From Mytilus trossulus (lineage: Eukaryota), in the NCBI RefSeq assembly GCF_036588685.1, contig NC_086373.1, positions 16,926,001-16,990,000 of the forward strand: a DNA stretch of 64,000 bases. The letters are read 5' to 3'. The translations under genes and the position numbers were made by a program. Within the stretch, counting starts at the first letter, position 1. Every line of letters starts with the position of its first letter. This document shows positions 34,861 through 62,207 of this stretch, in pieces. The notes under the pieces were generated by a model. That model saw only the letters and a list, made by a program, of their open reading frames with translations, was not told the origin of the DNA and ran no database searches.

Positions 34861-37800
34861 ATGGCGGGTACATTAGAAGGAAGCAGTGAACAGCCTATAG
34901 ATATATCCTTCAAAAAAATAAAAGAAATTGATGACTTTTTCGATGCATTTGACATTGCGGAAAATTTAGGCGTCGGCCTTGATGGGCTTGAAGATCTGGA
35001 AGAAATGAAAGAAAGATTGATGATGGAATTCCAGAAATGTCAGCCTGGATTTATAAATTATAAAGAAAAGGTCGGTAAAATGAAAATATGTGGTCGCATC
35101 TATGCCATGCAATGTCTTCTGTGGCACTATTGGTTTTGCAATACTGTATTTCAAGTGAAGTTTATTCTTTATTTCTTGAGATTTGTTTCAGCACTAACAA
35201 CTTTGTAACATCCATATAAATGATTTTCTTACTTTTTAGCTCACCTGGCCAAAAGGGCCAAGTGAGCTTTTCCCATTACTTGGCGTCCGTCGTCCGTCGT
35301 CCGTCGTCCGTCGTCGTCGTCCGTCGTCGTTTACTTTTATATCTAGTTTAAAAAATGTGTGGCGTGACCCGCCAAACCATCGAAGATGGCCGCCATGGCT
35401 AAAAATAGAACATAGGGGTTAAATGCAGTTTTTGGCTAATAACTCTGAAACCAAAGCATTGAAGGCAAATCTAACATGGGATGAAATTGTTAATCAGGTC
35501 AATATCTATCTGCCCTAAAATTTTAAGATGAATCGGACAATCCGTTGTTGGGTTGCTGCCCCTGAATTAGTAATTTTAGGGAAATTTTGCTGTTTTTGGT
35601 TATTATCTTGAATATTATTATAGATAGAGATAAACTGTGAACAGCAATAATGTTCAGCAAAATAAGTTTACAAATAAGTCAACATGACCAAAATGGTCAG
35701 TTGACCCCTTTAGGAGTTATTTCCCTTTAAATTAAATTTTTAACCATTTTTCGTAAATCAAATATATCTTTTACAAAAATCTTCTCCTCTGAAACTAATA
35801 GGCTAAATTAATCCAAACTTGGCCACAATCATCATTGGGGTATCTCGTTGAGAAAATGTGTGGCGTGACCCGCCAAACCAACCAAGATGGCCACCATGGC
35901 TAAAAATAGAACATAGGGGTAAAATGCAGTTTTTGGCTTATAACTCAAAAACCAAAGCATTTCGGGTAAATCTGACAGGTGTAAAATTGTTAACCAGGTC
36001 AAAATTTATCTGTCCTGAAATTTAAAGATGAATCAGACAACCCGTTGTTGGGTTGCTGCCCCTGAATTAGTAATATTAGGGAAATTTTGCTGTTTTTGGT
36101 TATTATCTTGAATATTATTATAGATAGAGATAAACCATAAACAGCAATAATGTTCAGCAAAGTAAGATCTACAAATAAGTCAACATAACCAAAATGGTCA
36201 GTTGACCCCTTTAGGAGTTATTGCCCTTTATAGTCAATTTTTAACAATTTTCATAAAATTTGTAATTTTTTACTAAATTTTCCACTGAAATTACTGGGCT
36301 AAGTTTATTATCTATAGAAATAATTGTTAGCAGCAAGAATGTTCAGTAAAGTAAGATGTACAAACACATTACCATCACCAAAACACAAAGTTGTCATGAA
36401 TCCATCTGCGTCCTTTGTTTAATATTCACATACACTAAGGTGAGCGACACAGGCTCTTTAGAGCCTCTAGTTTAGTCTTCTCGGCGGGGTTTGATTGAGT
36501 CGGCCGTCGTCGTTAACTTTTACAAAAATCTCCTCCTCTGAAACTACTGGGCCAAATTTAACCAAACTTGGCCACAATCATCATTGGGGTATTTAGTTTC
36601 AAAAATGTGTCCGGTGACCCGGCCAACCATCCAAGATGGCCGCCATGGCTAAATATAGAACATAGGGGTAAAATGCAGTTTTTGGCTTATAACTCAAAAA
36701 CCAAAGCATTTAGAGCAAATCTGACATGGGGTAAAATTGTTTATCAGGTCAAAATCTATCTGTTCTATAATTTAAAGATGAATCAGACAACCCGTTGTTG
36801 GGTTGCTGCCCCTGAATTAGTAATATTAGGGAAATTTTGCTGTTTTTGGTTATAATCTTGAATATTATAATAGATAGAGATAAACTGTAAACAGCAATAA
36901 TGTTCAGTAAAGTAAGATTTACAAATAAGTCAACATGACCAAAATGGTCAAGTGACCCTTTTAGGAGTTATTGCCCTTTATAGTCAATTTTTAACCATAT
37001 TTCGTAAATCCGATGTCCCGGCAATTCAACCTAGATAGCCGCTACGGCTTAAAATAGAACATAGGTGTTAAATACAGTTTTTGGTTTATAACTCAAAAAC
37101 CAAAGCATTTAGAGCAAATATGGCTTATGACAATTGTTTATCAGGTTGAGATCTATCTGCCGTGGAATTTTCAGATGGATCGGACAACCTGTTGTTAGGT
37201 TGCTACCCCTGAATTGGTAATTTTAAGGAAATTTTGCCGTTTTTGGTTATTATTTTGAATACTATTATAGATAGAGATAAACTGTAAACAGCAATAATGT
37301 ACAGCAAAGTGATACCTTAATATAAGTTCACATGACAAAAATGGTCAATTGACCCCCTAAGGAGTTATTGTCCTTTATAGTCAACTTTTAACAATTTTCA
37401 TAAAATTTGTAAATTTTTACTAACATTTTCCACAAAAACTACTGGGCCAAGTTCATTATAGATAGAGATAATTGTTAGCAGCAAGAATGTACAGTAAAGT
37501 AAGATGTACAAACACATTACCATCACCAAAACACAAAGTTGTCATGAATCCATCTGCGTCCTTTGTTTAATATTCACATACACCAAGGTGAGCGACACAG
37601 GCTCTTTAGAGCCTCTAGTTTAGCCTTCTCGGCAGTTTGATTGAGTTCTTCAACTCATTTAATATGTGCTATATAATTTTATGTTCATTGGTTTTTACCT
37701 ACGTCTTGTGTCCGTATGCTTTTAGTGTTAGTAATATTATTGTAAATGGTTTCGGAAATTCTCAAATCATGTAACAGTGATACAACGATGCAGAAAACTA

Positions 37801-40800
37801 AAAGATATTATAAAAGTGTTCAATGGAAAACTGAATGTACACATTTAATGTGTGAATAATAACGATAAATATAACGATCATCTCTTGAATAAATCATAAG
37901 TATAATACTAATAAGAAGAATACTTTATTAGTATTAACTTGAATTTGCATTGTCAGGAATTGGTAGACGAAAAGTTTCTCTAGAGGCTTAAGGAGGCTCG
38001 TGGGTACAAAAAAAAACAGCAAATATTTAAACATTTATTTTCCATAACAAATTTTATTCATAACATTATTAGTTGTAACATTATGATATGGTTAAAAAAT
38101 CAACCCCAAAAAATCAAGGCGTTTTAGCCCCAAATGATTTTTAAAATTTTGATATCACTGAAAAAGGTCCAAATTTTCTCCCTTTGGTGAAAAAATGTCG
38201 CATTCAAATTGAAATGTCTTTTTAAACTCATCGGTGACCTATATTTTTTATTAGTTTTTTCAAATAAGCTGCACTTAAACTAAACAATTGTAAAGTTTAA
38301 GCAATTTCTAATATTAGGTTCTTTTTTAATTTCGATTTTACCTTTTTTTCTCCTATTAGTTCAACAGAAAAAAACACCTAGTAAACAAAAATGCATGCTT
38401 TTTTCGATGGCAGATTGTGAGCTAATATGAAAGGTGACCCCATATTTTTATTTTATCTTTCTATTAAGTATAGGATAAAGTTTATTTAGAGAAAAATAAA
38501 GCGAAATCCTATATTAGAAAAAAAAAAATTTATACCCAGGAGCCCCCTTAATACAACATGTTCTGTAAAATATTACCGCATTTATTAAATTTCCAACTAC
38601 TCATCATTTTAATATATTTACTTGGTTCTTAGAAAAAGATGCTGAAAAAAAAGTAAAACTGATTTTTCGGGTGAGACGGCTACTGCAGTTTTCAGTTAGC
38701 GTATTTTAATGTTTTCAAAATTCTTCATCTTTGAGGGAGTAATTAAAATTGACAAGCAACACCAACTTCATTTCGTTTATATTTTTCACAAAAGGTTTCG
38801 TTTGACGCTTTATATTAGTTAAACTAAATCTTTGCATTGTCAAGCATATGTAGATGAATTATTCCTAGAATTTTCAAAATAAAATATTACTTCATTGAAT
38901 GAATTTTTCAACGATAATCTTCATTATAGACCTACTTGTTTGCTACATATTTCATTGATTTATTTATTATATAACACAGTCTGATTTGATATCTTATATA
39001 AAAAAAAAAGGCTTGCAAGCGAGTGGAATTCTTTTTTAAAGCTAAATTAATGTATTATGGGAGTATAAATTAAAAATGATAGAACTTGTTTGTACTTTGT
39101 TTGCTCCTTTTTAATTTTTTTTTTAATTCGAGCGTCACTGATGTAATGAGTCTTTTGTAGACGAAACGCGCATCTGGCGTAAATACAAAACTCTATCCTG
39201 GAATATATGATGAGTTTGTTTACAACCATAGGGTCGATTTCACTCCAGGGGGAGTTTTAATTCCCTCGAGGGTATCGTCAGCCTAATAGTCTAGTCAGCA
39301 CGTGAATTATCATTTTTATGGTCATATTCATAAATTAACTGCTTACAAACTATAAAATTTTGGAAATACTAAGGCTTTTTACTTCAGGTAAAGATTACCT
39401 TAGCTGTATATGTCAAAACTTTTAAGAATATTTGGTTCTCAATGCTCTCCAACTTCTTACTTTATTTGTCCTTTTTAACTTTTTTTATTCGAGCGTCACT
39501 TATGAGTTTTTTGTAGACGAAACGCGCGTCTGGCGTATAGATAAGATAAGATAAGATAAATGTACACACAATTATAAAATATCTATTCATGACTGCTTCA
39601 AAATAATAATATAGAACTTACTAATAAAAATCAACAATAAATACAAAAGAGGTATAATTACAGTTTAGTTCGCTTAAAAACGCCACTAGGGTAAAGGTTA
39701 AATAAATAAATAAAAAAAAAAAAAAATCAGTAAGAATTCAGTTATAGTTCAGTAAAACTTTTAGTAAAAATTACAGTAAAACTTTTAGTAAAAATTACAT
39801 TAAAACTTTTAGTAAAAATTGCAGTAAAACTTTTAGTAAATTACAGTAAAAATTTAACGATTAATTCAAAATAAATTCGTCAAGTAAAGATTTACAAAGT
39901 AAAAATACAAAAAAGGAAATTTAAATCAATACATTTAGTTTAAACAATATTATATAAATCTTTTACGTCTCATAAAACATTTATGGAGTGTATTAGCCAA
40001 AAGTGGTTGGATTTCATCACATTTCATTAAAGATGTAAACTTGTGTGCAGTAGTTAATATTTCAAAATTGTCAATTAACTGTTTAGCATTTTGAAAAAGT
40101 TCAAATCTAATGTCTGAATACATGGAATAAAGCGGACAGTTCATCATGAAGTGTATTTCATTTTCTACGGTTGAATGGTCACATAGTTTACATAATCGTT
40201 CATTCAAGGGTATCTGCGGTCTGGAATATCGTCCCGTTTCAATAGCCAATGACAACGCTCCACTTCTAAAAAGTGTCATTGTTCGTCTTACGGAACGTGG
40301 GACGTATATACAACACTTAATTCTGGTATATATGATGAGTTTATTGCCAAAGCGAAGTATATATATAGTGATATGTTCAAAAATATAATAAAAATGGCAG
40401 GTCACCGAACATTTTCTCAATCAACGGGTGTCACATGTGAAGCAAATTCTACTTACCCTTCTGGAGCGCTTGGAATCACCCCCTTTTTTTTGGTGGGTTC
40501 GTGTTACTCAGTCTTCAGTTTTTGATGTTGTTTATTGTGTATGCAGTATTTTTTTGTCTGTTTTTTTTTATTTTCGATTTATGAGTTTGACTGTTCCTCT
40601 GGTATCTTTCTCCCTTCTTTTGTGATACTTTGTATATGGTGCATACAGGGGAAAACAACAGTATGTGATAAAAAGCTTAACTAAATTATAGAATTGTAAA
40701 ATAAAATACGAGAAGGTTGCGATTAGAAAATGCTTTGAGAAGTCAAAAGAAAAGATAGTGTAACTGTATGTTTTTTTTCCCGGCAAAAAGTTAAATAGCA

Positions 40801-43800
40801 AAATTTCATGTTGTTTCCTTCAGAAAATGCACTGTTTCAGAGTTTCCTCCCCTTAAAATGACAATTTAAAAAACATTGAAAGTTATTAATCTACGCTTGT
40901 AAAATTAATGATATGTATCTTGAATTTTTTTTCTTTTATATGAAATGCACATTAGTTTTCTGCAAGGCTCATCAAATTTTGCTATTTTGATTAAAAATCT
41001 GGATCTTAGAGTCTCTGTTATATACAATCCAAGATGGCGGAAGACAACCATTAAACTTCTTCTAAAGCGCTACCGACCGTGCGAGGGCTGTATAGCCAGC
41101 CAAGGTCGTTAAACACTTTTCAAAAGCTCATTTTAAGCAACATGTTGCTTAATAGCAAACAACAATAAATCTATCTGAAGGTTGATATAGACTGAATTGA
41201 TATTTTAACTTGAAAAGTGTATTTCATTAAAATACAACATAATACTTTTGAGAGAGATATCCAAAAACTACTATATACCATCTCACTTCTCTTTAAAATT
41301 TGACACGTAGCTTTGTATTAAAATTAAGCTTTGTATAAGTTATTTGATAAGAATTATCGTGTTGTTAAATCAAGGTTTGCAATTAATTGACCCTGTCATC
41401 TTGTATTTCGGAGAACTCCAATTCAAATTGGAAATTTTCAAATTCAAAAAATTGAGAATGAAAATGGGGAATGTGTCAAAGAGACAACAACCCGACCAAA
41501 TAAAAAAACAACAGCAGAAGGTCACCAACAGGTCTTCAATGTAGCGAGAAATTCCCGCACCCGGACACGTCCTTCAGTTGGCTCCTAAACAAATATATAC
41601 TAGTTCAATGATAATGAACGCCATACTAATTTCCAAATTGTACACAAGAAACTAAAATTAAAATAATACGAGACTTACAAAGGCCAGATGCTCCTGACTA
41701 GGGACAGGCGCAAAAATGCGGCGGGGTTAAATATGTTGTGAGATCTCAATTCTCCCCTATACCTCTAACCAATGTAGAAAAGTAAATGCATAACAATACG
41801 CACATTAAAATTCAGTTCAAGAGAAGTCTGACTAAGTACTTTACACACTGTTAATTATAGCAACCTTTTAAAACAGTTATTGTCGAATTTTAAAAATAGA
41901 TTTTGATTCTTTAAGTTCAATATCATAAATCTTAAGTAATGGGGAGAGGGGGTCTTCGGCAGCAACCATTTGATTTCGGGGGGGGGGGGGGGGGGGGGGC
42001 TATGGATTTTTTTTGGGAAAAAATGTTTGCTTCCAGTTTTTGGAGAACAAAATAATTTGTTTTTGACCCTGAGAAAAAAATTTGTTTGTTTCACCCTAAG
42101 CTGCCACCATATATGCTAAAATTGAAAGAAAAAAACTGTTTTCGACTTGTCGCCAAAAAAAATAGATTGTCCAGAAAAAAGTCCATAGCCCCCATTGAGA
42201 AAATCAAATGGTTGCTGCCTTAATTATTTCTGTGTAATTTATTCACAGCACAATTCATAAATCTTCATAGCTCGAATTATTTTATACACATCTGTATATT
42301 GTTGTATTATATCTTTAATTTAATACAATTCAATGATATGTGGAAAGCCTAATCTCGTACGACTTTATGCACACACCACAATACTAACGGTTTTTAATTC
42401 TTTGGTTCGGTAAAATATGTGCATTCAGGTAACGGTTTGATGATTACCTACCAGACAAGAGTATTGACATTAGGCATTTAAATTAATTAAAAAAAAATTA
42501 GCATTGACAGAACACTTTGTATGTCAACAATTGATTATATTTAAATGTTTTTATTCAAATCTTTGGTCCATATACCAACAAGGAACAATATTATCTCTAC
42601 TTTGAAGACCATCGTCCTATATTTTGATGTGACTACTAGCATGATGTGCAATAGTGGTCCTTTTTTTCTTTATATATATGTAATTGACTTTCAAGCTCAG
42701 TTGGCTCACATGATAGTATGATTAGCATAATACTATTGAATCCTCTCATGTGATATATACATGCACTTGGGGACTTGTTTTTTTTCTTTTCCTTTATGAG
42801 TTCTTGTTTTTATTCATACAACTTTACAATAACAGAAGTTTATACATGCTATCTATCAGTTCTTATTTTCATGTTCTCCTTTTTTTTAAATTTATATGAA
42901 CTAGTCAATAAAATAAACTTTTCAAATTTCGATATCTAAACTTTCACCTTGAAAATTAAAAGTGTGAACTTATTCTCAAAAATATGAATACTAAATTAAC
43001 ATATTCGATATTTGGTACCAAATTATGAAATCTTTCTCAGGTGTAATAATACCTTTGAATAATACCTGTACGGTATTTTCTCACTTTCCGACTTGGTCGA
43101 ATTTTTTTACCATGTTTTGCAAATGAAATTTGTAATTAAAAGTTTTTCCAATTTATGATAATATATTAGAAATTCTAGTACATAGTATATGTCGTCACTT
43201 TTGTTGGCCTCTATATTTACATCTTCCGCTGCTTTTACAATAGGAACGTGTATTCTTATGGTTCTCGTTGCCCAAAATAGACAAACGTTATGTCGACTCT
43301 CTCAACGACGAAAAAAATGTGTCCTGTACACTGAAAGCTGTTTTATTCGAACATTTCACACTTTTGTCATATATGGGAAATGGAAATTAAGAATTAAAAC
43401 TTTGTAAACCCAACAAACTTAGAAAGCAGGAGCACTTAAAACACACGTTTCTCTTTTTTTATAAGAGCCCCGAATCTGAAACGAAAAAAAAATTGATTTT
43501 AGTTCAAAACATCTTGTACATCGCATATATAGCCTCCTTGTTCAAATAATAGGGGATTGGATTTTCTGTCAAGTTGGAGCTGATCATTATACTAGCAAAT
43601 CCTAATGCGTTTCATATGTTGTTTTAACTTACTTGGGGTTTTGTCATTCAAGAATGGTATACTTGATATTTCTTTTAAATGTGATTTCTCAATACTTTCA
43701 GATAAGTCGAGAAATGAAAGATTATAAAAGAGATGACAATAACAAAAGAGGAAAACTTCATGACTTATTAACCCAAACCAAAACAAAGTTCTCAATAGAA

Positions 43801-46800
43801 GATGCCAATTCTTCCGAAGGAATTTCTGTAATAGAGAAGGCTCTCAAAACAGAAGGATTTGTAAAAAATCTTGGTGAAGAGTTCTGCATCAGACAGGAAA
43901 CCATTAAGAAAGGGGAGTGTTGTATCGTTGTTGCAGGTGTGAAGGCATTGTAGAATATTTTTAAAACATAGTTAAGTCAAAGATTTTATTGATATAAAAT
44001 CAAAAATCAAAATCAGAACCAATCGTTGACAAATGAATATGTTCGTTTCCTTCAGTGTTTTTTTTAAAACTGTGGTCAATGAGATTTATGTTAAACTTAA
44101 ATATCTTAAACCCGCAGTCATAATTCAATTCCTTTTAGTTTCATAGACCACATTCAAATCAGCAAAACAAAGCTCAATTACTTAAAAAAAGATATAAAGG
44201 TTTATTGCAAACATTCACATCAAAATCTACTTGTATTTGTTTTTCATTTATTTGTTTTGTACATAAATCCGACCGTCAGTTCTCTCTATCGTCTAAATTG
44301 ATTAACATTTATCATTTCGAGGACTTTTATATTTTGTGTTTTGCTCATGTTCGAAGGCGAATGGGGACGTCTATTTGCTTATTTCATTTAGTCTCAAGTG
44401 GAGAGTTGTCTTATTGGCAATCATACCACATCTTCTATTTTTAAATGAAATACCAAAGATTCTTTTTATTATTTTGCAGGCGAAACGGCAGCTGGAAAAA
44501 CTCTATTCTTAAACCTGATATTGGGTGAAGACATAATGACGTCAAAACATTGGTCTTGTAGTGTTATCACCCGTTTGTCATATGGCAAGACAAAACATGC
44601 TAGAATTGTCTATCATGACAAAAACAGACCAGATGATATATATGATAATATTGATAATGGCAAACTCCATAAACTAGTGTACGAAGAAAACCTAGACAAG
44701 AGGGAAAACCTTTCTGATATAAAGGAAGTCCAGATATATCTTCCAGCTAAACTATTAGAGGTAAAACTTTTTAACTATTAATTGTTTGACGAAGCAATAT
44801 ACAAGTTAAATTTGTTTTTTTTTTCTAAACAATTTTGTTAATTATTTATTACGATCGGATGATTTTTTTTTTTATAAAAGTTAAAGCCACAGTAAAGCAC
44901 AGAAGGGTAACGTCTTCAAAATAAATCAACGAACAGAAGAAAAGGCAAAAAAACAAAAGCTGCTCATTTCTTACGCCTTGCGTCCACATTGAATAAGAAA
45001 AAAAGGCAAATAAAAGATGATATGTGGAGTATTCATAATTGACAAGCAAAATAAAACGAAACAAAGATATCTTAACGAAAAATACATGGTTTTCGACAAA
45101 ACGAAAACGTTCATTCGATAGGTCAAGCTCTTAATTGTCGTGAGTAAGGAAGTTAAACAAAGAAGTACCATCGATACAAAATTCCTTAATTTAATTTTAA
45201 TCGGAAAGACATCCACTGGTTCGGGGAAGGCCCATCACTCTTACGTTTCCAGAGAAAAAAACTACCTTCCGTGAAAGCAACTTTTAACATTCTTATTATT
45301 TATTCAGATATGTAAATTATCATTCAGTAATCCTTGTTATCGTATGGGTCTAATTTAAAATTATTTTGCCTTTATTTAGAGTGGTATAGTTCTGATAGAT
45401 ACACCTGGTATAGGAAAAAACGATGATATCGACGTTGTGGTAGAAAAATTTGTTGACGAAAATCAAGTGACTGGATTTATTTACATGATTAAATCTGATA
45501 ACCCCGGAGGTGTGGATGAAGACAGTGTACTTATTTATTTTGTTATTTTCATCATGGCTTATTTATTACATCGCATATTATTTCACATGAACAAAACGAA
45601 AAATCAGATAACAACGTTAATTAAATGATATGAGCAAAAAACAGCCCCAATACGGATAAATCATCCTGTGCAATAGAGATGACGTTCTACTGTCGATATA
45701 AATCAAGAGTTAATATTGCTTTTCGAACAGGGCCAATACTGAAAAAATAGAAAAGCCCGGAGAGAAGCCGTATTGGCCTATGGGCTAATATGGGAAATTC
45801 ACTTCCGGTTATATTTTTCTTACGCCTTATTTAACCTTTAATCATTAAATGAAAGTGTTATAGACTTACTGTATCGGTATTGGCCCTATTAATGATTATC
45901 GGTCAGCTGTGTTTGCCCTCGACTCTTTGTTCAATATTATAGTGTTATTAACTGGCTGTTTCTGTATTGGCACTGGTATAGATTCAAGGTTTGCTGTATT
46001 GGCCTCGAGACCCGCAGAAAAACCTGCATTTATTTATTTATTTATTTATTTTTTTAATTTAATTTTAATATTTTACACAATATACTTTCCAGTATTCAAA
46101 TAATTGATTTGTACACTATTTTGTAATGGTTTTCACTGAAAACGTAGCATTGAGGTGTATTTTCCGGGATTTGCCGAGTATCACCGGAACGCCATGTGAT
46201 AAAGTTACGGAAAGGCATGTGATAACAATCGAGCATGTGATAAACTTTTCATATCAGCCCGCTAAGCACCAATTCGAAAAATATGGAAAATACTTTAATT
46301 TAATGCTATTATCATACGGTAAAAATCATATGTTATTTAGTCTTAGTATAGGATAACACGTTTTAAATGATTATAAGAGAATTAAAAACCGGAAGTAAAC
46401 GTCTCGTATTAGCCCATGGGCCAATACAGCTTTCTTGCCGCTATTTTCTGAAATGGCCCTGTTTTTTCCGTTTCAAAACTTTAAGACGTTACAAAACATT
46501 GCACATCATTTAACCAGTTTATTTTATGACTTTAATTAAAAAAATATTATACAAATGTTTTTATGCATAACGATACTTCCAAAGTTAAGTAATGGCGTAA
46601 GAAAATTGAAAACCGGAAGTGAATGTTCTGTATTAGCTAATACGGCTTTTTTCCCGCTTTTTTCTGTATTGGCCCTGGTTTTTTTCGTATTGGCCCTGTT
46701 CAATTATATTAAATCTTGATTTATATCGACAGTGGAACGTTTTTGGTATTGCACATGCTGATTAGGGCTTATTTGCTCATATCATTTAATAAATCTATCT

Positions 46801-49786
46801 ACAATCTATAACAGGGCCAGTACAGAAACAGCAAGTTAATATCACTATAATATTTACCATATAAACGTAAATGGGCAACCATTATTAATACTATACCTAA
46901 CTTAAAATCCTGTGTTACGAAAATATAAACAAACAGCAAAAGTAAGATGAACAAAATTTGCTTAAATTAGAAACAGGATCGACTGCTGAACAATGAACTT
47001 TATATGTTATTCAGGTCTCAGACAGGGTATATACTGTGACATTCCCGGCTTAGAGTTTATATCCCCTGAGCCGTGAATATCACAGTATATACCCTTTCTG
47101 AAACATGAATTACACATATATTACGGATAACCCCTGACTTAATGTTATTTCCAGTGCAGGTATTTGTTGACAACACATATATATTGAAAATCCCAACCTG
47201 ATATGTTCGGCATACGTGAAGGATTTTCTAATTTGCTGTGAACATAATTTTATCGTGTATGTAGTAATTTATAATAACACTTTCAACATTAAATTTAAGT
47301 ATTAAAAGTGTAATTTTGCATGATTTTGTTTGAAAAAATGTATTATTGACTGAAGGACGTCATTATTTTCTCTCTGTGAGCCTCTGACAGTCTGATAGAA
47401 CTGACTACGTCACATAGTAACCGGTGTTATGATGACGTTTTTAAGGTTCCAATTGGGGATAGAAACGTCGTATATACCCCGGCAGTTTCCTGAATATATA
47501 CTGACATCTCTGTGCTGTTATCCAATCACAAACCTCGACACATTTGTAATCCGTCATATAAATTGTTTTTACCTAACTCTTAACTCTAATTCATAGTTTC
47601 CTATATTTTGTTGTATATGCCATTTAGTTTTGGTATTAACAATTTTTTTATGTGGAACTTTTTGTCTCAAATAAGATTTTGTGAATTGTTTTCTTCCGAA
47701 ACACATATCTTGCTGACTGAAATATGTGCCATTTGTTTATATTGATAAACGCCATTCTTGTACCAACTACTCATGTACTAGTCTCTAACTTATCCAGTAT
47801 CACCTACTAAGTAATACTGACCATCAAAGTACCTGTCGTTAGTAATAACATGTAAAATAAACGTACCAAATGCTTAATTGCTTAATGTTAATAATGTAAT
47901 TGGTGATTACAAGAGTTCTGGTACTTTCAGTTAGTTAAATTGATGAAGATAATTCTACAAAAGGAAAAGACAAAAGGAGAAAAGGGCACATTTAGATTTG
48001 ATCCTAGCTGTGCAATGTTCATTTGTAATCGTTGGGATAATGTATGTGAAAAAGATAAAGTATATAAATACATAGTTGACAGGCTTCATAAAATTTGGCC
48101 TAAGTTCGACGAAGAGAAAGTAAAGACATTTTCATCATACAAAGCCAAAAACGAAATGGAGACAGATCAAGATTATATAACATCAGACTTTCAAGATGTA
48201 TTAAATATACTGAGAAATATTTACAGCCAAGCTTTGAATGAACGAGTGAAGGTCACTTACAAGTAAGTTAATTACAAATTGGTGTCAAATATGGGAAATA
48301 ACAAAGATATTAAACGACAACCCTCTTCGTCATTAGTTAAAATTTCAAAACCTAAATTATGAGATCGATTTTTCACCAAGCGAAGGTTTGACAGTAAAAT
48401 GAGCTGTGCCTTTATAGTTTGATTTCAAAACACATACTTCTTTCTACTTGTTGAAGGAGGGACAATAATGCAATAACAAGACTCAATAGTATTGAGTTTC
48501 TATTTCTGATTTTGATTTATAGTTCATGACTTGCAGTGAGTTTAGCGTTGTTGTTTTTTTCCATGTTGAATGCCTCATTGTGCTTTATAGATGAAAAACA
48601 GCAACAACAAAAAACCGCTGTTCCTTTGCTTTTTATGCTGTTATTTTGTGTCGAAGATGGATACTCGATATCCTTTGTTATTTTGTTGGTAACATGCTGA
48701 AATATTAACGTTTATATTAGGTGGATGAAAACTCTTTTACTGCGATCAGTACATCACATGAAAACAATGGTTAAACAACTCAACTGTTCGGATGATGAAA
48801 TGATAAACAAAATGAAAGAAGCGAATAAAAATTTGGAAAAGCTAAACAATGAATCAGTTGACGTCATAACATCTTTAAGAGATATGATTAACACCAAGTC
48901 TCATCAAATTTGCGGTTTATTTCGAGAGAACCTGAAGCTACCTGTGGTGCGGATGGCTATAACTCAGTGGATAGAAGAAGAACTTCCAAGCGAGTTCATT
49001 CTATATCAGTATGGAATGCCTAAAGCAGTCAAGAAAGAATGGATGGATCTTAAAACGGAAATTGATGCTTTAATCATTGAAAGGATCGGTATTGAACTGG
49101 GCAAATGGGAAGAAATATACGGTACCATTGATATTCTTGAAACATTGGTTATTAACGAAATTCAGAAAAAGGTTTTGGGACTAACCAATGAGGTGACAAA
49201 AGTAGAGACAGAATTGCATTCATCAACAGCATCCAGAGATTTGACCGCATCAATTCCAAAACCCGCGCATCGAAGAGATAGCAGACGTGAAACTGTTTGT
49301 GCTACCTATTCTGGCAAAATGCAACTAGAGGATAATCAGTACTATCTCAGTGCCCTTGCAAGAAATAAAATGTTCCAGCCGATGAAGAAAGTTATACGAA
49401 TATTTCCGGGTGCTAATAAGTGGACGGTTTACGCGAGTAACAAATGCGCATATGCAAAGGGTCGATCTGAAAAACTTCTGAAAACATTTACCGAGCCATG
49501 CCAAAATGAGGACGATCCGCTGAAAATTGTCATTGACTTTTTTATGGAAGGAGCTAAGGAAACATTAGATAAATCCATTCTTGAGATTCAAAATTTGATC
49601 AAATCAAACCAGGACATTTTTAGTCACGTGTCAACGTGTAAACGTGATGTTGCCAAACATCTTCGAGTATATGAGGAAATGATGAAAGAACTAGAAGTTC
49701 TCAAACGTCTTCTAGCAGATTATGGTGAGGGATATATATTTATTGAAGATTTTAAACCAAATGAGTTACAGATTATTGATCAATAA
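34861..49786 (+). CDS. Gene D, open 5' part: N-terminal domain + dynamin-like GTPase + stalk (756 aa up to an insertion-created stop)
   Basis: Exons 34861-35070, 43702-43936, 44480-44760, 45380-45526 (weak donor T|gtactt), 47931-48262 and 48721-49786 (TAA). G1 GETAAGKT, G3 DTPG, G4 NRWD. Intron positions are shared with B/C. Confidence 0.75.
35233..37621 (+). mobile_element. Helentron/HINE-like non-autonomous elements, two tandem units (35233-36473 and ~36503-37621)
   Basis: 5' AGCTCACCT with a nearby inverted copy AGTGAGCT, a (CGTC/CGT)n microsatellite, long internal repeats, 3' AGGTGAGC plus hairpin AGGCTCTTTAGAGCCT, and T-rich flanks. Absent from the duplicate near 62.36-62.40 kb. Confidence 0.75.
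37992..38547. mobile_element. MITE with TTAA flanks (Kolobok-like GG..CC termini)
   Basis: TTAA|GGAGGCTCGTGGGTACAAA ... TTTATACCCAGGAGCCCCC|TTAA; absent from the duplicate at ~62750. Confidence 0.7.
39130..39539 (+). ncRNA. Two tandem degenerate minimal type I hammerhead ribozyme motifs (retrozyme / Penelope pLTR-like, ~361-nt monomer)
   Basis: Consensus GCGTCA-CTGATGA-GTC(loop)GAC-GAAA-CGCGCG-TC-TGGCGT. The copy at ~39132-39180 has a 5-nt insertion in the core. The copy at ~39493-39537 has CTTATGA. Confidence 0.7.
39540..40302 (-). mobile_element. 5'-truncated non-LTR retrotransposon (LINE 3' end)
   Basis: ORF end LAIETGRY...ERLCKLC...ENEIHFMMNCPLY (CCHC knuckle), a 3'UTR with ~24-bp tandem repeats, a (TCTTA)n tail at 39540-39560, and an apparent TSD CGTATA at 39534-39539 and 40303-40308. 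Confidence 0.8.
41958..42220. mobile_element. MITE with ~20-bp TIRs and an internal poly-G run
   Basis: GGCAGCAACCATTTGATTT ... AAATCAAATGGTTGCTGCC. Confidence 0.65.
45620..46790. mobile_element. Foldback/MITE with long imperfect TIRs
   Basis: ATTAAATGATATGAGCAAA...CTGTCGATATAAATCAAGA at the left; the reverse complements TCTTGATTTATATCGACAG...TTTGCTCATATCATTTAAT at the right. Confidence 0.7.
47003..47560. mobile_element. Element with a ~115-bp terminal hairpin plus a body bounded by short inverted repeats
   Basis: CAGACAGGGTATATACTGTGACATTCCCGGCT ... AGCCGTGAATATCACAGTATATACCCTTTCTG, followed by TATATTACGGAT ... ATCCGTCATATA. Confidence 0.55.
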
Positions 49787-51143
49787 AGGCAAAAGTAGTA
49801 TACCACTGTTCAAAATTCATTAATCCATGGACAAAAAACAAAAACGGGGTAACAAACCAAAACCGAGGGAAACGCATTAAATATAAGAGGAGAACAACGA
49901 CACAACACCGAAACACAACACACACAGAAAAGGACCAAGCATCAGACAAAACACCACGAGAATAACAAATATAACATGAAAACCAAATACATGAATTTGG
50001 GATAGACAAGTACCGTGCCACGTCTTATCTCAATATCTCAAAAATAAGAGAAAACACAAACGACTCAACGTTAAAATGCAACACACACAGAAACGAACAA
50101 TAATATAACAATGGCCATCTTCCTGACTTGGTACAGGACACTTTTAAAGGGGAATAAAAGTGGTGGGTTGAACCTGGTTTTGTGGCATGCCAAACCTCGC
50201 ACTTTAATGGCAAAGTTAAATATAACATTGAAATGACAACATAATATTACAGGACTACAATACAAATAAATTGGAGATCATATTAGACAAAGCAAAACAT
50301 GATTAATAGATAACAAAAAGCATCAGGTTTAAATTCAATACGCCAAAAACGCGCCTTGTCCACACAAGACTCACCAATGACACCCAGATATAAAAGATCG
50401 AAAGTGAAAAAAGTACAAAGTTGTACAGCACTGAAGATCAAAAGTTGAAAAGGTTTCGCCAAATACGGCATTGTTTTTATGCCCGGGATAAGAACATTCT
50501 TATTATATAGAACAATTCACGCTATTGCAAACAGTACATTTTATCAAATGAATATGAAAGAGATATACATAAAGAAACTGAGGTATTAACAAATTACAGA
50601 AAACTAAACCCGAATACATAACGCCCAGATATAAAAGATCGAAAGTGAAAAAGGTACAAAGTTGTACAGCACTGAAGATCAAAAGTTGAAAAGGTTTTGC
50701 CAAATACGGCATTGTTTTTATGCACGGGATAAGAACATCCTTATTATATAGAACACTTAATGCTATTGCAAACAGTAAATTTTAACAATTGAATATGAAA
50801 GAGATATACATAATGAAACTGAAGTATTAACTAATTACAGAAAACTAAACCCGAATACATAATGCTAAGTTTATCACAAAATAGACACACCCGAATCAGT
50901 CCAGGCGTCAACGTAATTAAAAAAAATTAAAAATGTGACGTCACATACGATGGCGAAAAGGCACAAATGTTATGCCACATTTGAACTTATGAAATTTAGA
51001 AACATCATGACGTCACATATGAAAAACTATCATTCAAAAGTGAGATAGAATTAGGATTGATTTAAGATTGTATTAGAACTATACTGATAATCCATTCCAA
51101 CAAAATGCATATTGCAATACATATTAATAGCAATTAACTGTAA
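49784..51143. mobile_element. ~1.36-kb composite insertion inside D exon 6
   Basis: Begins with the repeat end AATAAAGGCAA(C/A)AGTAGTATACC, also seen at ~8486, ~22057 and, reversed, ~4050. Contains a ~239-bp tandem duplication (50384-50861) and a decayed hammerhead-like motif on the minus strand (~50340-50385). The coding frame resumes after it. Confidence 0.75.
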
Positions 51144-51145
51144 TA

Positions 51146-52794
51146 TATATATGTGTCCAGTTTGATATGAATCCAAATTCAAACGTAAATAATCGTACAA
51201 AATTTAATATTATTAATAATAACGCAACAGGAAGGTCAACGACCCCTTTCAAAATATCAGAATTCTTGATGAACATGTCAAGTTCACAAACTAGCACGAT
51301 CCAACAATGCCCCAGGGGTTTGTGGACAGCACACCAGAAAGGACTACTGAAACATGAAAATAGCGAAGAAAAGGTTACCATTAAAATATACCTTCCTTCA
51401 TGCAACACAGACAGATGCTATTCCAAAATTGCAAAGCTGAGGTTAGTTCACTATTTTTATTTAACTTAATGTTAATAGTAAAAAAATATCAAGCGCGTGT
51501 TTAAGTATCTTAAAACTAAAATGTGTTTTTCAATCGTTTTTGACGTGTTTTGTCATTTGAATTTACCATGTGATAAGGGACTATCCAATTGAATTTTCCT
51601 CGGAGTTCAGTATTTTTGTGAATTTACCTTTTAAAGCAAAAGTAAAATTTTGTGCTTCTTTTTTTATTTCAAATTTTATCATTTTTGAAAATAAAGTTCT
51701 ATAGATAAACTCATATCTGTTAAATTTATTTGATGGAACTATCCAATGTCGCATCATAACAACGATATTTTAATTGTATTTCAGATTATTAGAACATAGC
51801 AATGTTGCAGAATTCTTGGGAATAAAAAATTCAGAATCGTATTTTCCTGCAATTGTATACAACAAACCTATGAGGATACTTCGACATCAATACGAGAAAC
51901 ATTCTGGACATTTATATATCTCCAACTTACTCCAGGAGGTTACAATGGGGTTACAATACCTTCATAGACATGGGATGGTCCATATGGAACTTAATATGAA
52001 TACTGTTATGGTAGATATATTTTTCAGTTATTTTAAAATAAAATGGATAAAATTTGAAATAAAAAATATCTTATAAATTTTTTGTTAGACAGTACATTAA
52101 ATTATTTTTGTCGTTACTTTAAGATTAACAGAAGTCTCAATAGCACACTATATGTTTCTGTAGTCTAAAGATTGTGGAATCGGATAGTCGAATCGCATTT
52201 TTGCGCATGAAAATAGTAGAACAAAAGTCGTACTTATTTAAAAAAAATTTAGAGAAATCTAGAAAGTCATGCTTTGTTACAAATATAATATATTCTATTA
52301 ATTAATTTATTAGCACAAAATGGGCGAAAATAAAATAATTTTTACTTTTGTGTCTTGTTTGTAGTTGGATTCAGCGGGAAACATTCGTCTAACTGGTTTT
52401 TATCTTCCTCGTAAAGCAGATCTTCCAGGAAACCAAGAGCAACATATAAGTGGAGATTTTGTCTATTAGGCACCGGAAGTTTTGAGAGGAGATCTGTACA
52501 CCGCAAGTGCAGATGTCTATGCGTTTGGCCGTCTGATGTTTGACATGATGTCGAAAAATATCGCTAGATCTGTTTATTAAAAGAATAAATCCTAGAGAAA
52601 TGATAAGTCTCGAAACTGATGTGCCTGATGATGCAATTGACATTATACTTCGGTGCTTAGAAATATCAGAGGAATCGAGACCAACACTTTTAAATTTACA
52701 AGAACAAGTAAAGGTCCTCAAAACTGACCAACATGCCAAAGAACCCAAGCAAAATGAAGTAACTTACCGGGGACATAAACATGGAAGGGACTAG
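51146..52794 (+). pseudogene. Gene D, 3' part: disrupted pseudokinase domain
   Basis: Exon remainder ~51146-51441 (VTIK lysine motif), exon 51785-52010 (LQYLHRHGMVHMELNMNTVM) and exon 52365-52794 (IRLTGFY...DFVY*APEVL...DVYAFG). In-frame TAG at 52467-52469, and a frameshift before the C-terminal ...LRCLEISEESRPT segment. Confidence 0.8.
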
Positions 52795-55707: not shown

Positions 55708-57699
55708 CGACAAATTTTGGGTTTGGCAAAACTGTCTATCATTCTCAAATCGTCTTGTTGGTTGCGAACTTAATAGTCGGCTACAAAAAGGCAAAGACAT
55801 GAGTAATATGAAACAATTCAATTTGGAAAATAAATGTCCAAAGCCGCCTGTCTATAGTTGAAGTCCTTGTGTTTCACTAGATATCTTGTTTTATATATAT
55901 ATATATTACTTTCATTGGTATGTGTTTCATTAGATTATGTACAACGTCTCCTTTTATTCATTAAAAACATGATAAGTACAATATAAATATTTTTTGTAGT
56001 TTAAAATCAGTCACAAACGCATGATGTACATTTATGATCAACCATTTCTAACCCGTCCTCTCTGCACACCGCCTGCGTAGCAGTATTTACAACATAAATG
56101 AAGACACATGACTTTGAAAGGTATTTTTTAAGTGATTTGTGCATCTGGTTGTCACCAAATCCAGGAGTATCTATTATCACCAGACCTTCCTGCAGAAGAA
56201 AAAACAGTAAATTAGAAATTTTGTAACCCTACGTAATACAATATAGTTTTTCTTTGTACAATAAATATACAGTAAAGCACAATTTGGTAAACGGCAATTA
56301 TAAAATATGCCGACATTTGATCATCCATAACTGTTGTAATAAACCCACATGCTCTCGTTTCCCTTAAACGACAACGCTGTTAAACATTGCCATTTAAATT
56401 TTGAAAAAAGAAAAAGAAATTGCGTTACAAAACTTTAATTGCTAATATTTAAACAAATTACATAGACTCATAAAGGCCCGCTCAATGCAAACATTTTAAT
56501 AACATGTAGTCATAAACCACTTAAATCACCATAGTGGGTAATACATTGTGCGCAATATTTTCCTATCGTCTGAAATAAAAAATCAACAAGAACGTTCACT
56601 TTTAGTTAAGAGCAATTCTTTGTAACCACCAACCATTTTATATAGGGGGTCCGGCACGCATAGTCACCAATTTTCACGAAACTTAGCCATAACATGTGAT
56701 CATGTAAAAAAGTAAAGAGAAAAGTCAATTGCAACTTCAGGTATACGCATCTTGTAACTGTAGAAAAGTCATCCAGTAATAAGTATTACGTATTTGTTAA
56801 ATTAAAATAGGAAACGAAATTACTTTATAGTAAACAATTTGAAGATAAAAGTCATAATTTTCAATGAAACACAGACTTCTTAATTTTATGAAATATAACT
56901 CGACTTGATGCTTGATACACCTAGCAAAGTTTAAATACGCCACATTTGACTTTTTCGTAATTCATAGAAAAATTACACTGAAATGTCGCGAGAAAACACT
57001 TGAGTGAATAAAAGATGAAAAACGTCTTTCTTGATAAACTAGAAGTTGTAAATGGAACAGTGTATATATCACATTATAACATACCTCAATTACGTCAGTG
57101 GGCCAATATTTTTCTATTTTTTTTCGTATGGATTGTCACCATAATCATCTTCGTATACTATTTCTCTCCTTAACCTTTCTTGTCCTTCCTTGGTACTTAG
57201 ATCTATCTCGGATCTCTGTCCGCCATTAGTCCCAAAGCAGATTGCCTTCTTTCGACCATCTTTGCTCTTTCGAATTTCGCAGACTGTTTGTGTACATTTA
57301 ATACCACTTGTAGGAAGAATGTCAGCTTCCAGTAATAAGTTTATAAGACTACTTTTTCCTGATGTTGCTTCACCTAAAAAAAAGATGATTTAGAGCTCAT
57401 TGTCGTGCGAAAATCAGGCTCTCATAGGCGTGTCGAAGTAATCACAAAATCACATTTTATTGTCATTACAATCACATAATCATTAAAAAAATGTATACAA
57501 GATAATAAAAAAAAACAGTCCTATATATATTATCAAACGATCATGAAATATTTTGTCTGGTAATCAAATAATCACTATAAAAACGGCCAAGTAATCACAT
57601 AATCAAAACCCCAACAGGAGGCTCGAAAATATATTGATATTTAAAATAATTAAGTCTTGTTTTTAAAAGATAAAGAAATCAATGGCGGAACTATTACAA

Positions 57700-58393
57700 T
57701 TTATCATAAACTTAGCATTGATATGATAGCTTTTGTATATGTGTAATGAGCGGAAGTACACAAGCCATAATTTTTCACCCAGGCTGATAACCCATAATAT
57801 TCAGCCCGGGCTGATAACCGATATCAGGGGCGTCTCGTGCAAAAACCCATATCAGTGCTTCTCGTGCAAGTTACTTCCGGTATTTCTGGTATCGATTGTT
57901 AATTTTTCCATTGTGACGTCAGATATTTTTTATGACGACGTCAAAATTTATGGGAACTTTTGTGGGGAAAGTTTAGTACTTGATAACAAATGCCATTGAC
58001 AATAAAGAATCTTTTTATAGTACAACAAACATGGAGGAATAATGATCATAAAACTCTTCTAAATTTTCAATGTTTCAAAATGCCTCTATAGTAAATGTTA
58101 CCATACATATGGAGATAGTGATGCTGTTGTTGGACAATTATAGTGTAGTTGATTCATAATTTAACTTCTTTATAAAGTTTTTGACTGTTTTAGTTATTGC
58201 ATTTGTTTATTTGCCTTACATAAAACTATTGTCGGAAGTATATGATAAAGCGATTAATACATGGCCTTTTCCATATCAGCCTGGGTATCATCCCTCGACC
58301 CATATCAGCGCCTCGACTCCGTCTCGGGCTGATATGGGGGTCTCGGGATGATACCCAGGCTGATATGGAAAAGGCCATGTATTAATCTCTATG
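57700..58393. mobile_element. Insertion in E intron 2 ending in a 134-bp near-perfect hairpin (58253-58386)
   Basis: ATTAATACATGGCCTTTTCCATATCAGCCTGGGTATCATCCC ... GGGATGATACCCAGGCTGATATGGAAAAGGCCATGTATTAAT; absent from C at ~30858. Confidence 0.75.
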
Positions 58394-59654
58394 TAATGTC
58401 ATAAGAAAGGAAAGAACGTCACTTGGATGCATATGCATTACACATATATCCACAGCGCTTTTAATACTGGTCAATCGTCACAGCAAAGTATGTAAGCATA
58501 GTCAAAACAGACCCAAGCGTCTACTACAATGATACTGTTTGATATTATAATCGTTATTAACTTCATACAGTTTTGAAGCAATCCTTGCAAGAGTTACCAC
58601 TGAATTGCACTGATGGGGTATTACCACGTTTTGAATGAAGTTTATTATCAGAAAAAAATAAACAAAAAAGGTACTTTAACAGCATGACCACTGGCTTTAT
58701 TTTGTCATTAGTATCTAATAGTTTTGACTTACAGTGATGTATGGTAGTGTTTTCTTGGAATCTGTACGTATTGTAAGTTTAGTTGTATTTGTTGCTGAAC
58801 AATGCGCCATTTATGTTCATTGTCTGTTTTCATGTATTATCGAATTATTCTGTAAATATTTTTTTTCTAAAATGAAAGTTTTTTGTACCTGCGACAAGAA
58901 TGTTACATTCAGGTGACGACAGCTCAGATCGCTTGGAATGAGCATTCTTCTCAATGTCTGGAAAGATACTGTTTAAATCTTGTTGGAAGTTTGGAGGTAG
59001 TTCTCTATAAAAGTTCACGACTTTGTCATAAAGTTTCATTAATTTCTCTCTATTTCCTCTGTGATATTGCAATGCTTCTTGTAAAACTGTTCCTCCCTGA
59101 AATTTAAAAAGAAAGTATAAAAATAAGAAAGTTATATATGATGTCATACCAATTTTTTTAGAAAATAATTGGTAACACAGTCTTCTCAATGTGATTATTT
59201 TGTGCAATATTAATGGATAAAAATTAATTGTTCATACGTATAACATAATTTCAAATCTTTGAATAGGTATTAAATAGCTAAATAAAATCAGCTTGTACGT
59301 ATTACAATTCATATACAAAAACAAAATCTTTACACAAACATTACAGAACATTCGTTGTTTAAGTTTAAAAATACAATATAATTTGTGATGATAATATTAG
59401 TTACATCGAAGAATCTGTACGCAGCAAGGAAACTCAAAAACGTGTGCAAATGCACCTGTTATGTGATTGATTGTTGATTGCCTAACGTCCAGTGGCAAAT
59501 ATTGCATGCGAATTCGGGACGACATGTTGCATGCGTAGTGTCAATTCTTTTTACAAAAAGCTTACTTTCTATTAGTTGCATCGAATGATGATTGTCTGTT
59601 CGTATTGATTTTTTATTGATACTAATACACATCTGATGTGTAACGGGACAATCA

Positions 59655-60182
59655 CTGACCAGTTTACCTGTTCTAAGTCATTACAACTTCAGACAACCAC
59701 TGTGTACATGCAACTCCTGACCTGTATACATGTACAAGTCATTACAACATAGTCCAACCACTGACCTGTATACATGTACAAGTCACTACAACTTAGACAA
59801 CCACTGACCTGTATACATGTAAAAGTCACTACAACTTAGACAACCACTGACCTGTATATATGTACAAGTCACTACAACTTATACAACCACTGACCTGTAT
59901 ACATGTACAAGTCACTACAACTTAGCAACACTGACCTGTATACATGTACAAATCACTACAACTTAGACAACCACTGACCTGTATACATGTAAAAGTCACT
60001 ACAACTTAGACAACCACTGACCTGAATACATGTACAAGTCACTACAACTTATACAACCACTGACCTGTGTACATGTAACAAGTCCCTACAACTTAAGACA
60101 ACTCCTGACCTGTATACATGTACAAGTCATTACAACATAGTCAAACCACTGACCTGTATACATGTACAAGTCACTACAACTT
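59655..60182. repeat. 43-bp minisatellite (more homogeneous) in E intron 1
   Basis: Unit GACAACCACTGACCTGTATACATGTACAAGTCACTACAACTTA with period 43 (e.g. 59761 to 59804), about 12 copies. Confidence 0.9.
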
Positions 60183-61564
60183 TTGTACTAAAGCAGTAGA
60201 ACAAAAGACAAGTATTGACTGCATCAATATTACAAATTTAGTTGAATTTAAGAGAACAATTGAAAAGAATGCCTATACAAGGTTAACTAAGACATCACCC
60301 GTAAGTCATTGGAAGCAAAGACAACTATGTCCAGTATACTTGGACCATATAAAAAAAATAAGGAGATGTGGTATGATTGCAAATGATACAACTATCCACC
60401 AAAGATCAAATGGGGTGAATGTCAACAATGAATTCTTATCTTCTATGTTATACTTACACTTTGCTTATATATAGAATGCATGAAAACGAAAATAAGAATA
60501 GATAAAAAAAAATAATAATACATAGGCGCAAGTTCATTAAAAAGGTTTTAAAAAAGGAACATCACAAAAATATGCAGTGCCTACGAAAGGTGTGCGTCTG
60601 CTTTTCATATTTCATCTCTATTGAATTTATAAAGTACAATTGGTAAACGTGTGGCTGAAATTTAGAAAAAGTGGTGAAGAAATCAATATCGCAATGTATG
60701 TAAGTGCGAAAAGTATACATGTTTAATCAAATGAAGCATAGCCTATTTAAAATTCACATGTTGTATACTTCAGAATTATTTTCAATGATCAGTAGAGTGT
60801 CAGTCATAAATTTAAATTTCTTAAAAGCGATGAACTAACACTTTTTTTTAACAATTAGTCTGGGACTTTCCCCAAATAATTTGATCAGATACTTTATACA
60901 ATGTAATATAGTAACGATGAAAAGGCGAAATAGTCTCAATGTTCCGAACGACTGATTCTTTTGAAAACGGTTAAAACATAAACTGGTATCGTGTTGCAGT
61001 GATTGTTATTTGTCGTGTCATTGAGTTATTCGCCTACATAGATTACACAAAAATAAAAAATAGTGCATGCATAATTTATCATTTTAAATATATCACTGAT
61101 TATTATTGATAAGATAAGTATTGATATTCAACAATATTCGATCAAGATTCAAATATAGACTAATAACAGACGAATTCATCAATAAAATCTTTAATTTGCC
61201 AGTTTGCAGAATATGTTCCTGTTTCATGTATTAAAGCACTATCGTATTTTTCATTTTGCAATTTCAAAACCAATTAAAAAGCCGGTGACAATTTTAAGCA
61301 TACATTCATAAGACTATGGATTTAATATACTGTATGCATAAAAGATAAAGATCGACAACCGATAAAACAAAATCTTACCGTTTTTCTGTCTTTGGGTGCG
61401 ACAGCTCCATTTTCCTTATAAAATTTTACTAGTTCTGATACGAAAATGTCTTTATTTGCAGTTTTTGGTGCTTTTATTCCCCACTGTTTAAAAAGTTTCA
61501 TCATGGACTGTATATCTTTCAGTTGTAAAATATCTTCTACTTTGTTAATTTGTATTTCTGCCAT

Positions 61565-61997
61565 TTTGTCTTGTCAGTGGTCAACAATTTCTTTCACGTA
61601 TGCTGTAATTAGGAAGCCTTGAGATTCCTTATAATTGCTCCATAATCCGATTCCGTGTAAAGGGTGCAATTTTCGTCACAGTGGTTGAATCCAACTTCCT
61701 TATTGTAAAAAAGTAGAATTATTTATAACAAATGTAAAAACCTATGCGCAGTCGCTGTTACCACTCAAATGGTATTTAAGTTCTTGTCTGTAATTTTACC
61801 CTCACAAACCCGTTTAAAACTACAATACTATATTTGTTTTGAATATACGGATCAGTTATGAAGATCAACAAAAATGAGTGTATAATATTCTGTTGACTTT
61901 TAACACGTGTCATCGACATTTAAACTAAAATATTAGCTAATTGGCGTGTATCTATAAACTATATTCCATATAAATCGTTGTTAAACATTTATACGAA
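61565..61997. promoter_or_regulatory. Duplicate of the putative bidirectional promoter (E/F)
   Basis: 433 bp between divergent ATGs; near-identical to 34426-34860. Confidence 0.55.
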
Positions 61998-62207
61998 ATG
62001 GCGGGTACATTAGAAGGAAGCAGTGAACAGCCTATAGATATATCCTCCAAAAAAATAAAAGAAATTGATGACTTTTCTGATGCATTTGGCATTGCAGAAA
62101 ATTTAGACGTCGACCTTGGTGGGCTTGACGATTTGGAAGATATAAAAGAACGACTGATGATGGAATTCCAGAAATGTCAGCCTGGATTTATAAATTATAA
62201 AGAAAAG
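61998..62207 (+). CDS. Gene F: exon 1 of a duplicate of gene D; the rest is expected right of the window
   Basis: MAGTLEGSSEQPIDISSKKIKEIDD...YKEK|gtcggt, near-identical to D exon 1, in the same head-to-head position relative to E. Confidence 0.75.

Follow-up and report, generated by a model that had tools for sequence, protein, structure and literature searches.

A kinase-like sequence at positions 51,146 to 52,794 of a 64,000-nucleotide stretch of the Mytilus trossulus genome (NC_086373.1, 16,926,001 to 16,990,000, forward strand; hereafter the window, whose numbering is used unless stated otherwise) raises the question of how a kinase domain came to lose its catalytic residues. A preliminary description placed it in a damaged gene, here called gene D, read it as a pseudokinase with an MLKL-like motif pattern, and proposed that its degeneracy is older than the damage. 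Here, we ask whether the losses reflect the decay of one copy or an older lineage and, if the latter, of what kind.

Gene D is a broken copy of an intact neighbor

Gene D was delimited by tblastn of the protein P0001, by DNA alignments to a second copy, gene F, and by AG/GT exon ends. Its lesions were read from the alignment to F.

34861..52794, plus strand: gene D, a broken copy of a dynamin-like GTPase-pseudokinase gene
34861-35070, 43702-43936, 44480-44760, 45380-45526 and 47931-48262, plus strand: gene D exons 1 to 5
48721-51441 (split by a repeat), 51785-52010 and 52365-52794, plus strand: gene D exons 6 to 8
44558..44559, plus strand: 3-bp deletion by which the GTPase loses its G2 (switch I) Thr
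49779..51219, no strand assigned: 1.44-kb high-copy repeat inside exon 6, absent from F
52467..52469, plus strand: nonsense TAG (TTG in F)
52552..52553, plus strand: frameshifting 26-bp deletion after 52552
61998..62207, plus strand: first exon of F, D's intact twin gene, which continues beyond the window to about 16,999,950 of G000:C1

The eight exons of F translate exactly to P0001 (1,058 amino acids; M. trossulus LOC134717044), and F is 92% identical to D (tblastn of P0001). D differs from F by four clear lesions (the 3-bp deletion, the repeat insertion, the TAG, and the 26-bp deletion), which bears out the nonsense and frameshift damage described earlier; the G2 Thr lost in D is present in 35/36 family rows. 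The repeat, whose start is given as 49779/83, brings an in-frame stop into D at once after the insertion point (49784-49786), and two further lesions stand besides the repeat, however it is spliced. Gene D is itself an ordinary recent pseudogene, the broken duplicate of a gene found across molluscs.

Splicing of the repeat out of D was considered and rejected: the in-frame stop precedes the first GT within the repeat, and splicing from the GT at 49765 to the AG at 51160 would not keep the phase. Searches with the two repeat ends gave 3,617 and 1,401 first-look candidates in the genome (40 scored each, 86 to 97% identity), and one genomic copy covers 49779-51219 at 94% identity. The repeat contains two tandem copies of ∼245 bp (50377-50620 and 50621-50865); it looks like a non-autonomous element of the Helitron/Helentron type. 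An intron of D also holds a 156-amino-acid open frame (39950-40420, minus strand), which resembles the C-terminal part of a retroelement protein.

Public run contigs, of run kinds that we guessed and used for splice joints only, lack both kinase-domain introns of F, with joints at GT..AG, in 4/4 runs, and one 3,603-nt contig differs from three F exons by one letter. Contigs of 4/4 runs aligned to D carry the F letters GGC and TTG, and no contig with D's own lesions was found among the matches listed in the four runs, although contigs cannot show absence. Residue changes in the pseudokinase domain fall mainly on D (16 private to D, 3 to F, 4 ambiguous; P = 0.004), as polarized with P0007, P0008, and P0002, outgroups that may be closer to F. 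The changes private to D include E827K in alphaC and G919F/C920Y (GGC to GFY). One of these outgroups, P0002 (M. galloprovincialis LOC143066878), is an open model with GKY for GKS and YTPG for DTPG; given these motif changes its GTPase looks degraded, and it may likewise be a second copy in decay.

A second genome search found three pseudokinase copies as a lower bound, D, F, and a gene G at about 17,020,200 to 17,042,000 of G000:C1. Gene G is 37 to 45% identical to F, has Arg at the beta3 position, and is open in its last three exons.

Catalytic losses are shared by an intact pseudokinase family

Motifs were counted in G and 45 database proteins, 46 rows in all, which were selected by their score against the domain of F, so that the counts below are somewhat inflated by the pseudokinase query and by four near-identical Mytilus rows. 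Most rows have N-terminal homology too; D, B and C (genes of the active type, see below) and P0116 were excluded, the last as outside the family because it has no N-terminal homology. Full-length relatives occur in scallops, oysters, clams, unionids, abalone, limpet, whelk, land snail, cephalopods, and amphioxus.

51221..51310, plus strand: insert before the Gly-rich loop, 28 residues relative to active kinases (hhalign, pseudokinase versus active)
51311..51328, plus strand: degenerate Gly-rich loop PRGLWT (family G-L-W; W in 40/46 rows)
51374..51385, plus strand: beta3 VTIK (family K in 22, R in 24 of 46)
51425..51427, plus strand: alphaC Glu-to-Lys change private to D (Glu in F and 45/46 rows)
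51981..52004, plus strand: catalytic loop HMELNMNT for HRDxKxxN, a family signature (M in 43, E in 44, terminal Asn in 1 of 46)
52386..52403, plus strand: RLTGFY; the Gly for DFG-Asp is old, and the Phe and Tyr occur in D alone, where gene F has GGC

The motifs of D were as first described for the Gly-rich loop, the retained beta3 lysine, the catalytic loop, and the kept APE and DVYAFG. Two others proved to be of mixed origin: the alphaC string YSKIAKLR and the string RLTGFY are both present in D, but their Lys and their Phe and Tyr, respectively, belong to D and not to the family.

By one definition, a pseudokinase is without one or more of the beta3 Lys, HRD-Asp, and DFG-Asp (PMC4718504, excerpt). 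In the family DFG-Asp is missing from 46/46 rows (Gly in 39), HRD-Asp from 45/46, and the beta3 Lys from 24/46, in agreement with the pseudokinase status claimed for D. HRD-Arg is lost from all 46 rows, and the catalytic-loop Lys and Asn from 45 each. The alphaC Glu, in contrast with its loss in D, is otherwise nearly universal, the alphaF Asp is present in 46/46, and a basic beta3 residue is present in 46/46. What replaces the lost residues is itself conserved: the family has a new signature, HMEL and GxC-PR, with Cys two places after the DFG-Asp position in 43/46 rows and near-invariant residues E900, C920, P922, R923, W793, and Y815. Both kinase lobes are more conserved than the stalk that precedes them (0.52 and 0.50 versus 0.38). 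Judged from these alignments, the conserved replacement pattern fits selection for a non-catalytic role.

Intact homologues do not retain HRD and DFG: F and the family rows share the losses, so the degeneracy is older than D's damage, as the preliminary description had proposed. Over the domain, dN/dS between F and D was 0.23 (271 codons), and it was 0.29 over 1,045 codons (Nei-Gojobori). The kinase fold is kept in the intact, spliced gene F, whose model matches JAK2 over residues 745-1040 (Z 24.1, rmsd 3.0, 257 aligned). Pfam kinase similarity is slight for the pieces of D (E values of 2e-4 to 5e-4) and strong for its twin F (5e-25). The domain does not begin at 51146, as had been thought, since its first strand sits upstream of the repeat and the model aligns to kinases from residue ∼743. 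Similarly, of the Asn/Ser/Thr-rich insert of ∼45 amino acids reported before the N-lobe, about 17 codons (Met 51167 to ∼51219, 7 of them Asn) are the tail of the repeat, and the 28-residue remainder is genuine. This remainder has a fixed length and a variable sequence, with a helix at 770-778 predicted in the model; the spacer before the Gly-rich loop measures 40 to 56 amino acids in complete mollusc rows versus 19 in B and C.

A quick IQ-TREE analysis of 40 full-length rows split 30 pseudokinase from 10 active rows (SH-aLRT 100); the pseudokinase branch follows the cephalopod, gastropod, and bivalve lines in a tree that is unrooted and has a long amphioxus branch. The Branchiostoma protein P0180 has the same architecture with a kinase of intermediate kind, which keeps HLD and has lost DFG-Asp and the alphaC Glu; its stalk tip is more hydrophobic, and its source label, FGFR4, looks wrong. 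An Atlas search with the kinase domain alone led to generic kinases, and NCBIfam gave only generic kinase and dynamin matches, below cut-off.

A dynamin-like GTPase and stalk precede the pseudokinase

Pfam detects Dynamin_N in 35/36 full-length rows (2.5e-19 in the F protein), and the GTPase motifs are largely present: GK(S/T) in 34/36, the G2 Thr as above, DxxG in 33/36, and the G4 N..D in 35/36. The AlphaFold2 model of the F protein (pLDDT 80, pTM 0.74) had as its top Foldseek matches BDLP (8.8e-17), IniA, and the 5oxf/5owv dynamin pair, and mitofusin-1 aligned to residues 70-745 (Z 27.9, rmsd 4.8, 333 aligned). The N-terminus is therefore predicted from these model matches to be a GTPase and stalk of the mitofusin/BDLP type, with neck and trunk helical bundles. 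Over residues 70-745 the predicted fold, with G1 to G4, is like that of BDLP (2j68/2j69), IniA (6j72), 5owv/5oxf, SynDLP (7zw6), and mitofusin/Fzo1. Unlike the bacterial dynamin-like proteins and mitofusin, the family carries a C-terminal kinase or pseudokinase domain and has no clear transmembrane hairpin, the 17-residue hydropathy maximum of the stalk tip being less than 1.6 in 34/36 pseudokinase rows. The tip is a short amphipathic, often basic stretch in the pseudokinases and a small-residue hydrophobic stretch (hydropathy 0.6 to 1.7) in the active type.

The pseudokinase and active types are homologous over their whole length (hhalign 100%, 943 columns) and have the same two kinase-domain intron positions. 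Three short helices make up the first ∼60 residues of either type (window 34861-35070, 34240-34425, and 2133-2318), in a pattern similar to a SAP/HeH-type module; Pfam gave no significant match for the first 60 to 70 residues.

In the Atlas, unnamed mollusc and cnidarian kinase+Dynamin_N clusters scored 0.97 against P0001. By language-model features, without alignment, the named clusters nearest to full-length P0001 were DSTYK-like (Mollusca; 0.94, 227/256 features) and DSTYK (dual serine/threonine and tyrosine protein kinase; Chordata; 0.94, 224 features), whose members are of similar length (927 to 972 amino acids). DSTYK ("RIPK5") has retained 9 of the 12 residues critical to a kinase (PMC9573974, excerpt), whereas the family pseudokinases are without the canonical catalytic residues, and the DSTYK clusters have no Dynamin_N in Pfam, unlike the family. 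We treat a relation to DSTYK as a lead suggested by sequence features.

Pseudokinase and active-type genes stand head to head in the window

The window also holds genes of the active type, two of which face D and F.

5566..18590, minus strand: gene B, a further active-type paralogue, used as a reference in the preliminary description
24397..34425, minus strand: gene C, encoding a dynamin-like GTPase whose kinase motifs are canonical, with no internal stop in any of its 11 exons, facing D
34426..34860, no strand: C-D spacer between start codons (435 bp), a candidate shared two-way promoter
56044..61564, minus strand: gene E, a truncated, frameshifted copy of C (only codons ∼1 to 265 found), facing F
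61565..61997, no strand: E-F spacer between start codons (433 bp)

The start codons face each other at 34425 (C) and 34861 (D) and at 61564 (E) and 61998 (F), and the two spacers are identical in 428/447 alignment columns; the head-to-head unit is thus present in two copies, E-F being the duplicate of C-D. The frame of E breaks, with a stop near codon 265. Each type has therefore kept a single intact copy after the duplication, C for the active type and F for the pseudokinase, and their counterparts E and D are broken. Because there is one duplicated unit in one genome, the two head-to-head pairs count as a single observation.

Canonical catalytic residues are kept in 9/10 active-type rows. 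At least 6 active-type genes lie in one cluster on C1 (16.856 to 16.951 Mb) and five related genes on C7, C2, and C9; those inspected keep HRD or DxG where seen. The kinase exons of B (5566-7400) and C (24397-26350) encode near-identical protein, and their upstream exons are markedly different, which suggests gene conversion or exon shuffling between paralogues.

Elsewhere, the two types have neighboring locus numbers in Mercenaria (LOC123529920/LOC123529922) and are at 009095, 009099/009104 in Potamilus, on contigs of equal listed size; in Pinctada their locus numbers are far apart. The Mercenaria and Potamilus numbers point to linkage in two clam lineages that are distant from each other. 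Two further proteins, one per type, share a longest contig of 7,422 nt, a weak hint in the same direction. Linkage is also expected as a leftover of tandem duplication.

We consider it probable that the mollusc-wide GTPase-pseudokinase, intact in F, is a non-catalytic partner of the active-looking GTPase-kinase encoded head to head with it, a partnership that we infer from the gene layout. The spacer of ∼435 bp would drive both facing genes together, and the two proteins would assemble together on membranes by way of the GTPase and stalk that each carries, like paired bacterial dynamin-like proteins. One such pair, 5owv/5oxf, is titled in PDB as an oligomerized dynamin pair, and we take it to be a heteromer of the products of two neighboring genes. 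The pseudokinase could then be a module for docking or conformational control, either tuning the partner kinase or taking signals from it; the Lys/Arg-Glu bridge and the C-lobe are kept in this putative module, and metal-binding and catalytic residues are swapped for fixed new ones. The Trp and the insert at the Gly-rich loop possibly cover the ATP site and may block binding. Since both metal ligands are gone, any ATP binding would be cation-free. A complex prediction for the active kinase domain (P0261 692-989) with the pseudokinase domain (P0001 740-1038), run without alignments and with controls not folded, scored 0.00 in two runs and counts neither for nor against the partnership.

Active and inactive homologues acting side by side are familiar from JAK JH1-JH2, EGFR-HER3, LKB1-STRAD, and plant immune receptors paired head to head. 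Unlike those kinase-pseudokinase partners, both proteins here carry a dynamin-like GTPase, and their partnership is drawn from layout alone. A receptor pair of NLR and MLKL has also been described (10.64898/2026.08.07.743466, abstract).

It is less likely that the pseudokinase works alone, either within its own protein, as a scaffold or intramolecular brake for the GTPase, or as a decoy against enzymes of pathogens, with the layout left over from an old inverted duplication. No active-type gene was found facing G, and genome searches found no facing pseudokinase for the at least 6 other active-type cluster genes; Sinanodonta pseudokinases have expanded by themselves (ACJMK2_017072, 017075, and 017076). 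Against such independence, the spacer of ∼435 bp is 96% identical between units with a coding dS of about 0.2, the duplication left one intact copy per type, and locus numbers are neighboring in the two clam lineages.

The partnership may extend to a role in cell-autonomous defence, a tentative guess from the rapid gain and loss of copies. Broader still, and doubtful as a whole, is an ancient animal two-gene system in which dynamin-like GTPases with an active kinase and with a pseudokinase would be co-transcribed head to head and co-assemble, phosphorylation would gate GTP-driven membrane remodelling, and molluscs would use the system as an effector of defence or lytic death.

The family departs from MLKL

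MLKL, which consists of a four-helix bundle, a brace, and a pseudokinase, went undetected in Mollusca (PMC11476962, excerpt). Its motifs are GFE, VAIK, and HGK, with T357/S358 adjacent (PMC6013482, excerpt), and it binds ATP without cations (PMC4718504, excerpt). An MLKL-like mechanism would have the pseudokinase restrain a membrane-damaging N-terminal module that is freed by phosphorylation from the neighboring kinase, as a necroptosis-like mollusc effector. This reading, which we regard as improbable, draws on a membrane-active domain joined to a pseudokinase with a linked active kinase, and on the failure to detect MLKL itself in the mollusc survey just cited. As in MLKL, the pseudokinase lies behind a membrane-related N-terminal part, the Gly-rich loop and HRD are degenerate, and Gly stands for DFG-Asp in 39/46 rows (PMC4718504 and PMC6013482, excerpts).

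That Asp-to-Gly change is the only part of MLKL's GFE that the family shares. The place after it is Phe in 0/46 rows and the third place Glu in 0/46, so that the family has GxC where MLKL has GFE, and HME where it has HGK. The resemblance to GFE arose by chance as D decayed, since GFY is private to D and F has GGC. The activation loop runs on after GxC in columns L-P-R-x-A and, unlike that of MLKL, has no fixed Ser/Thr, its best column reaching 17/46. The beta3 Lys required for ATP binding by murine MLKL (PMC4718504, excerpt) is conserved in MLKL, whereas the family has Lys in D and F and Arg in 24/46 rows, G included; the alphaC Glu, replaced in D, is kept in 45/46. Residues 70-745 are a GTPase and stalk instead of a four-helix bundle and brace. 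The MLKL-like pattern first reported for D thus does not hold for the family. Neither the best 60 PDB sequence matches nor the fold matches listed included MLKL, which does not exclude it.

Still less probable is an atypical, metal-free active kinase with Glu in place of the catalytic Asp. Its appeal lies in the near-fixed Glu at the catalytic position (44/46), the alphaC Glu (45/46), and the basic beta3 residue (46/46), but the metal-binding residues are gone (DFG-Asp from 46/46, catalytic-loop Asn from 45/46), as is the catalytic-loop Lys (45/46), and more than half of the rows have a beta3 Arg. That every substitution is decay after D became a pseudogene has next to no likelihood and, on the aligned sequences, is already refuted for the core motifs: the four lesions and excess private changes of D account for GFY and the alphaC Lys, but HMEL and Gly for Asp are shared by G, by the intact F, and by full-length proteins from three classes of molluscs.

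An apparently undescribed mollusc lineage

We found no publication on the GTPase-pseudokinase family in a search whose scope left out subscription journals and supplements; kinome or pseudokinome tables could list it. The excerpt of PMC9573974, on DSTYK, makes no mention of molluscs or dynamin, and kinase, BDLP, mollusc, and DSTYK are absent from the text of PMC11789081.

In place of a false MLKL lead stands a real lineage of pseudokinases, apparently undescribed, that bivalves, gastropods, and cephalopods have retained. Joined to a dynamin-like GTPase that is intact, and with an active homologue opposite, it offers a compact model for the control of membrane remodelling by a kinase and a dead kinase, and it opens a way into the N-terminal part of DSTYK-type kinases, which is poorly understood. 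Both F and C, as natural genes that are intact, lend themselves to direct expression and testing.
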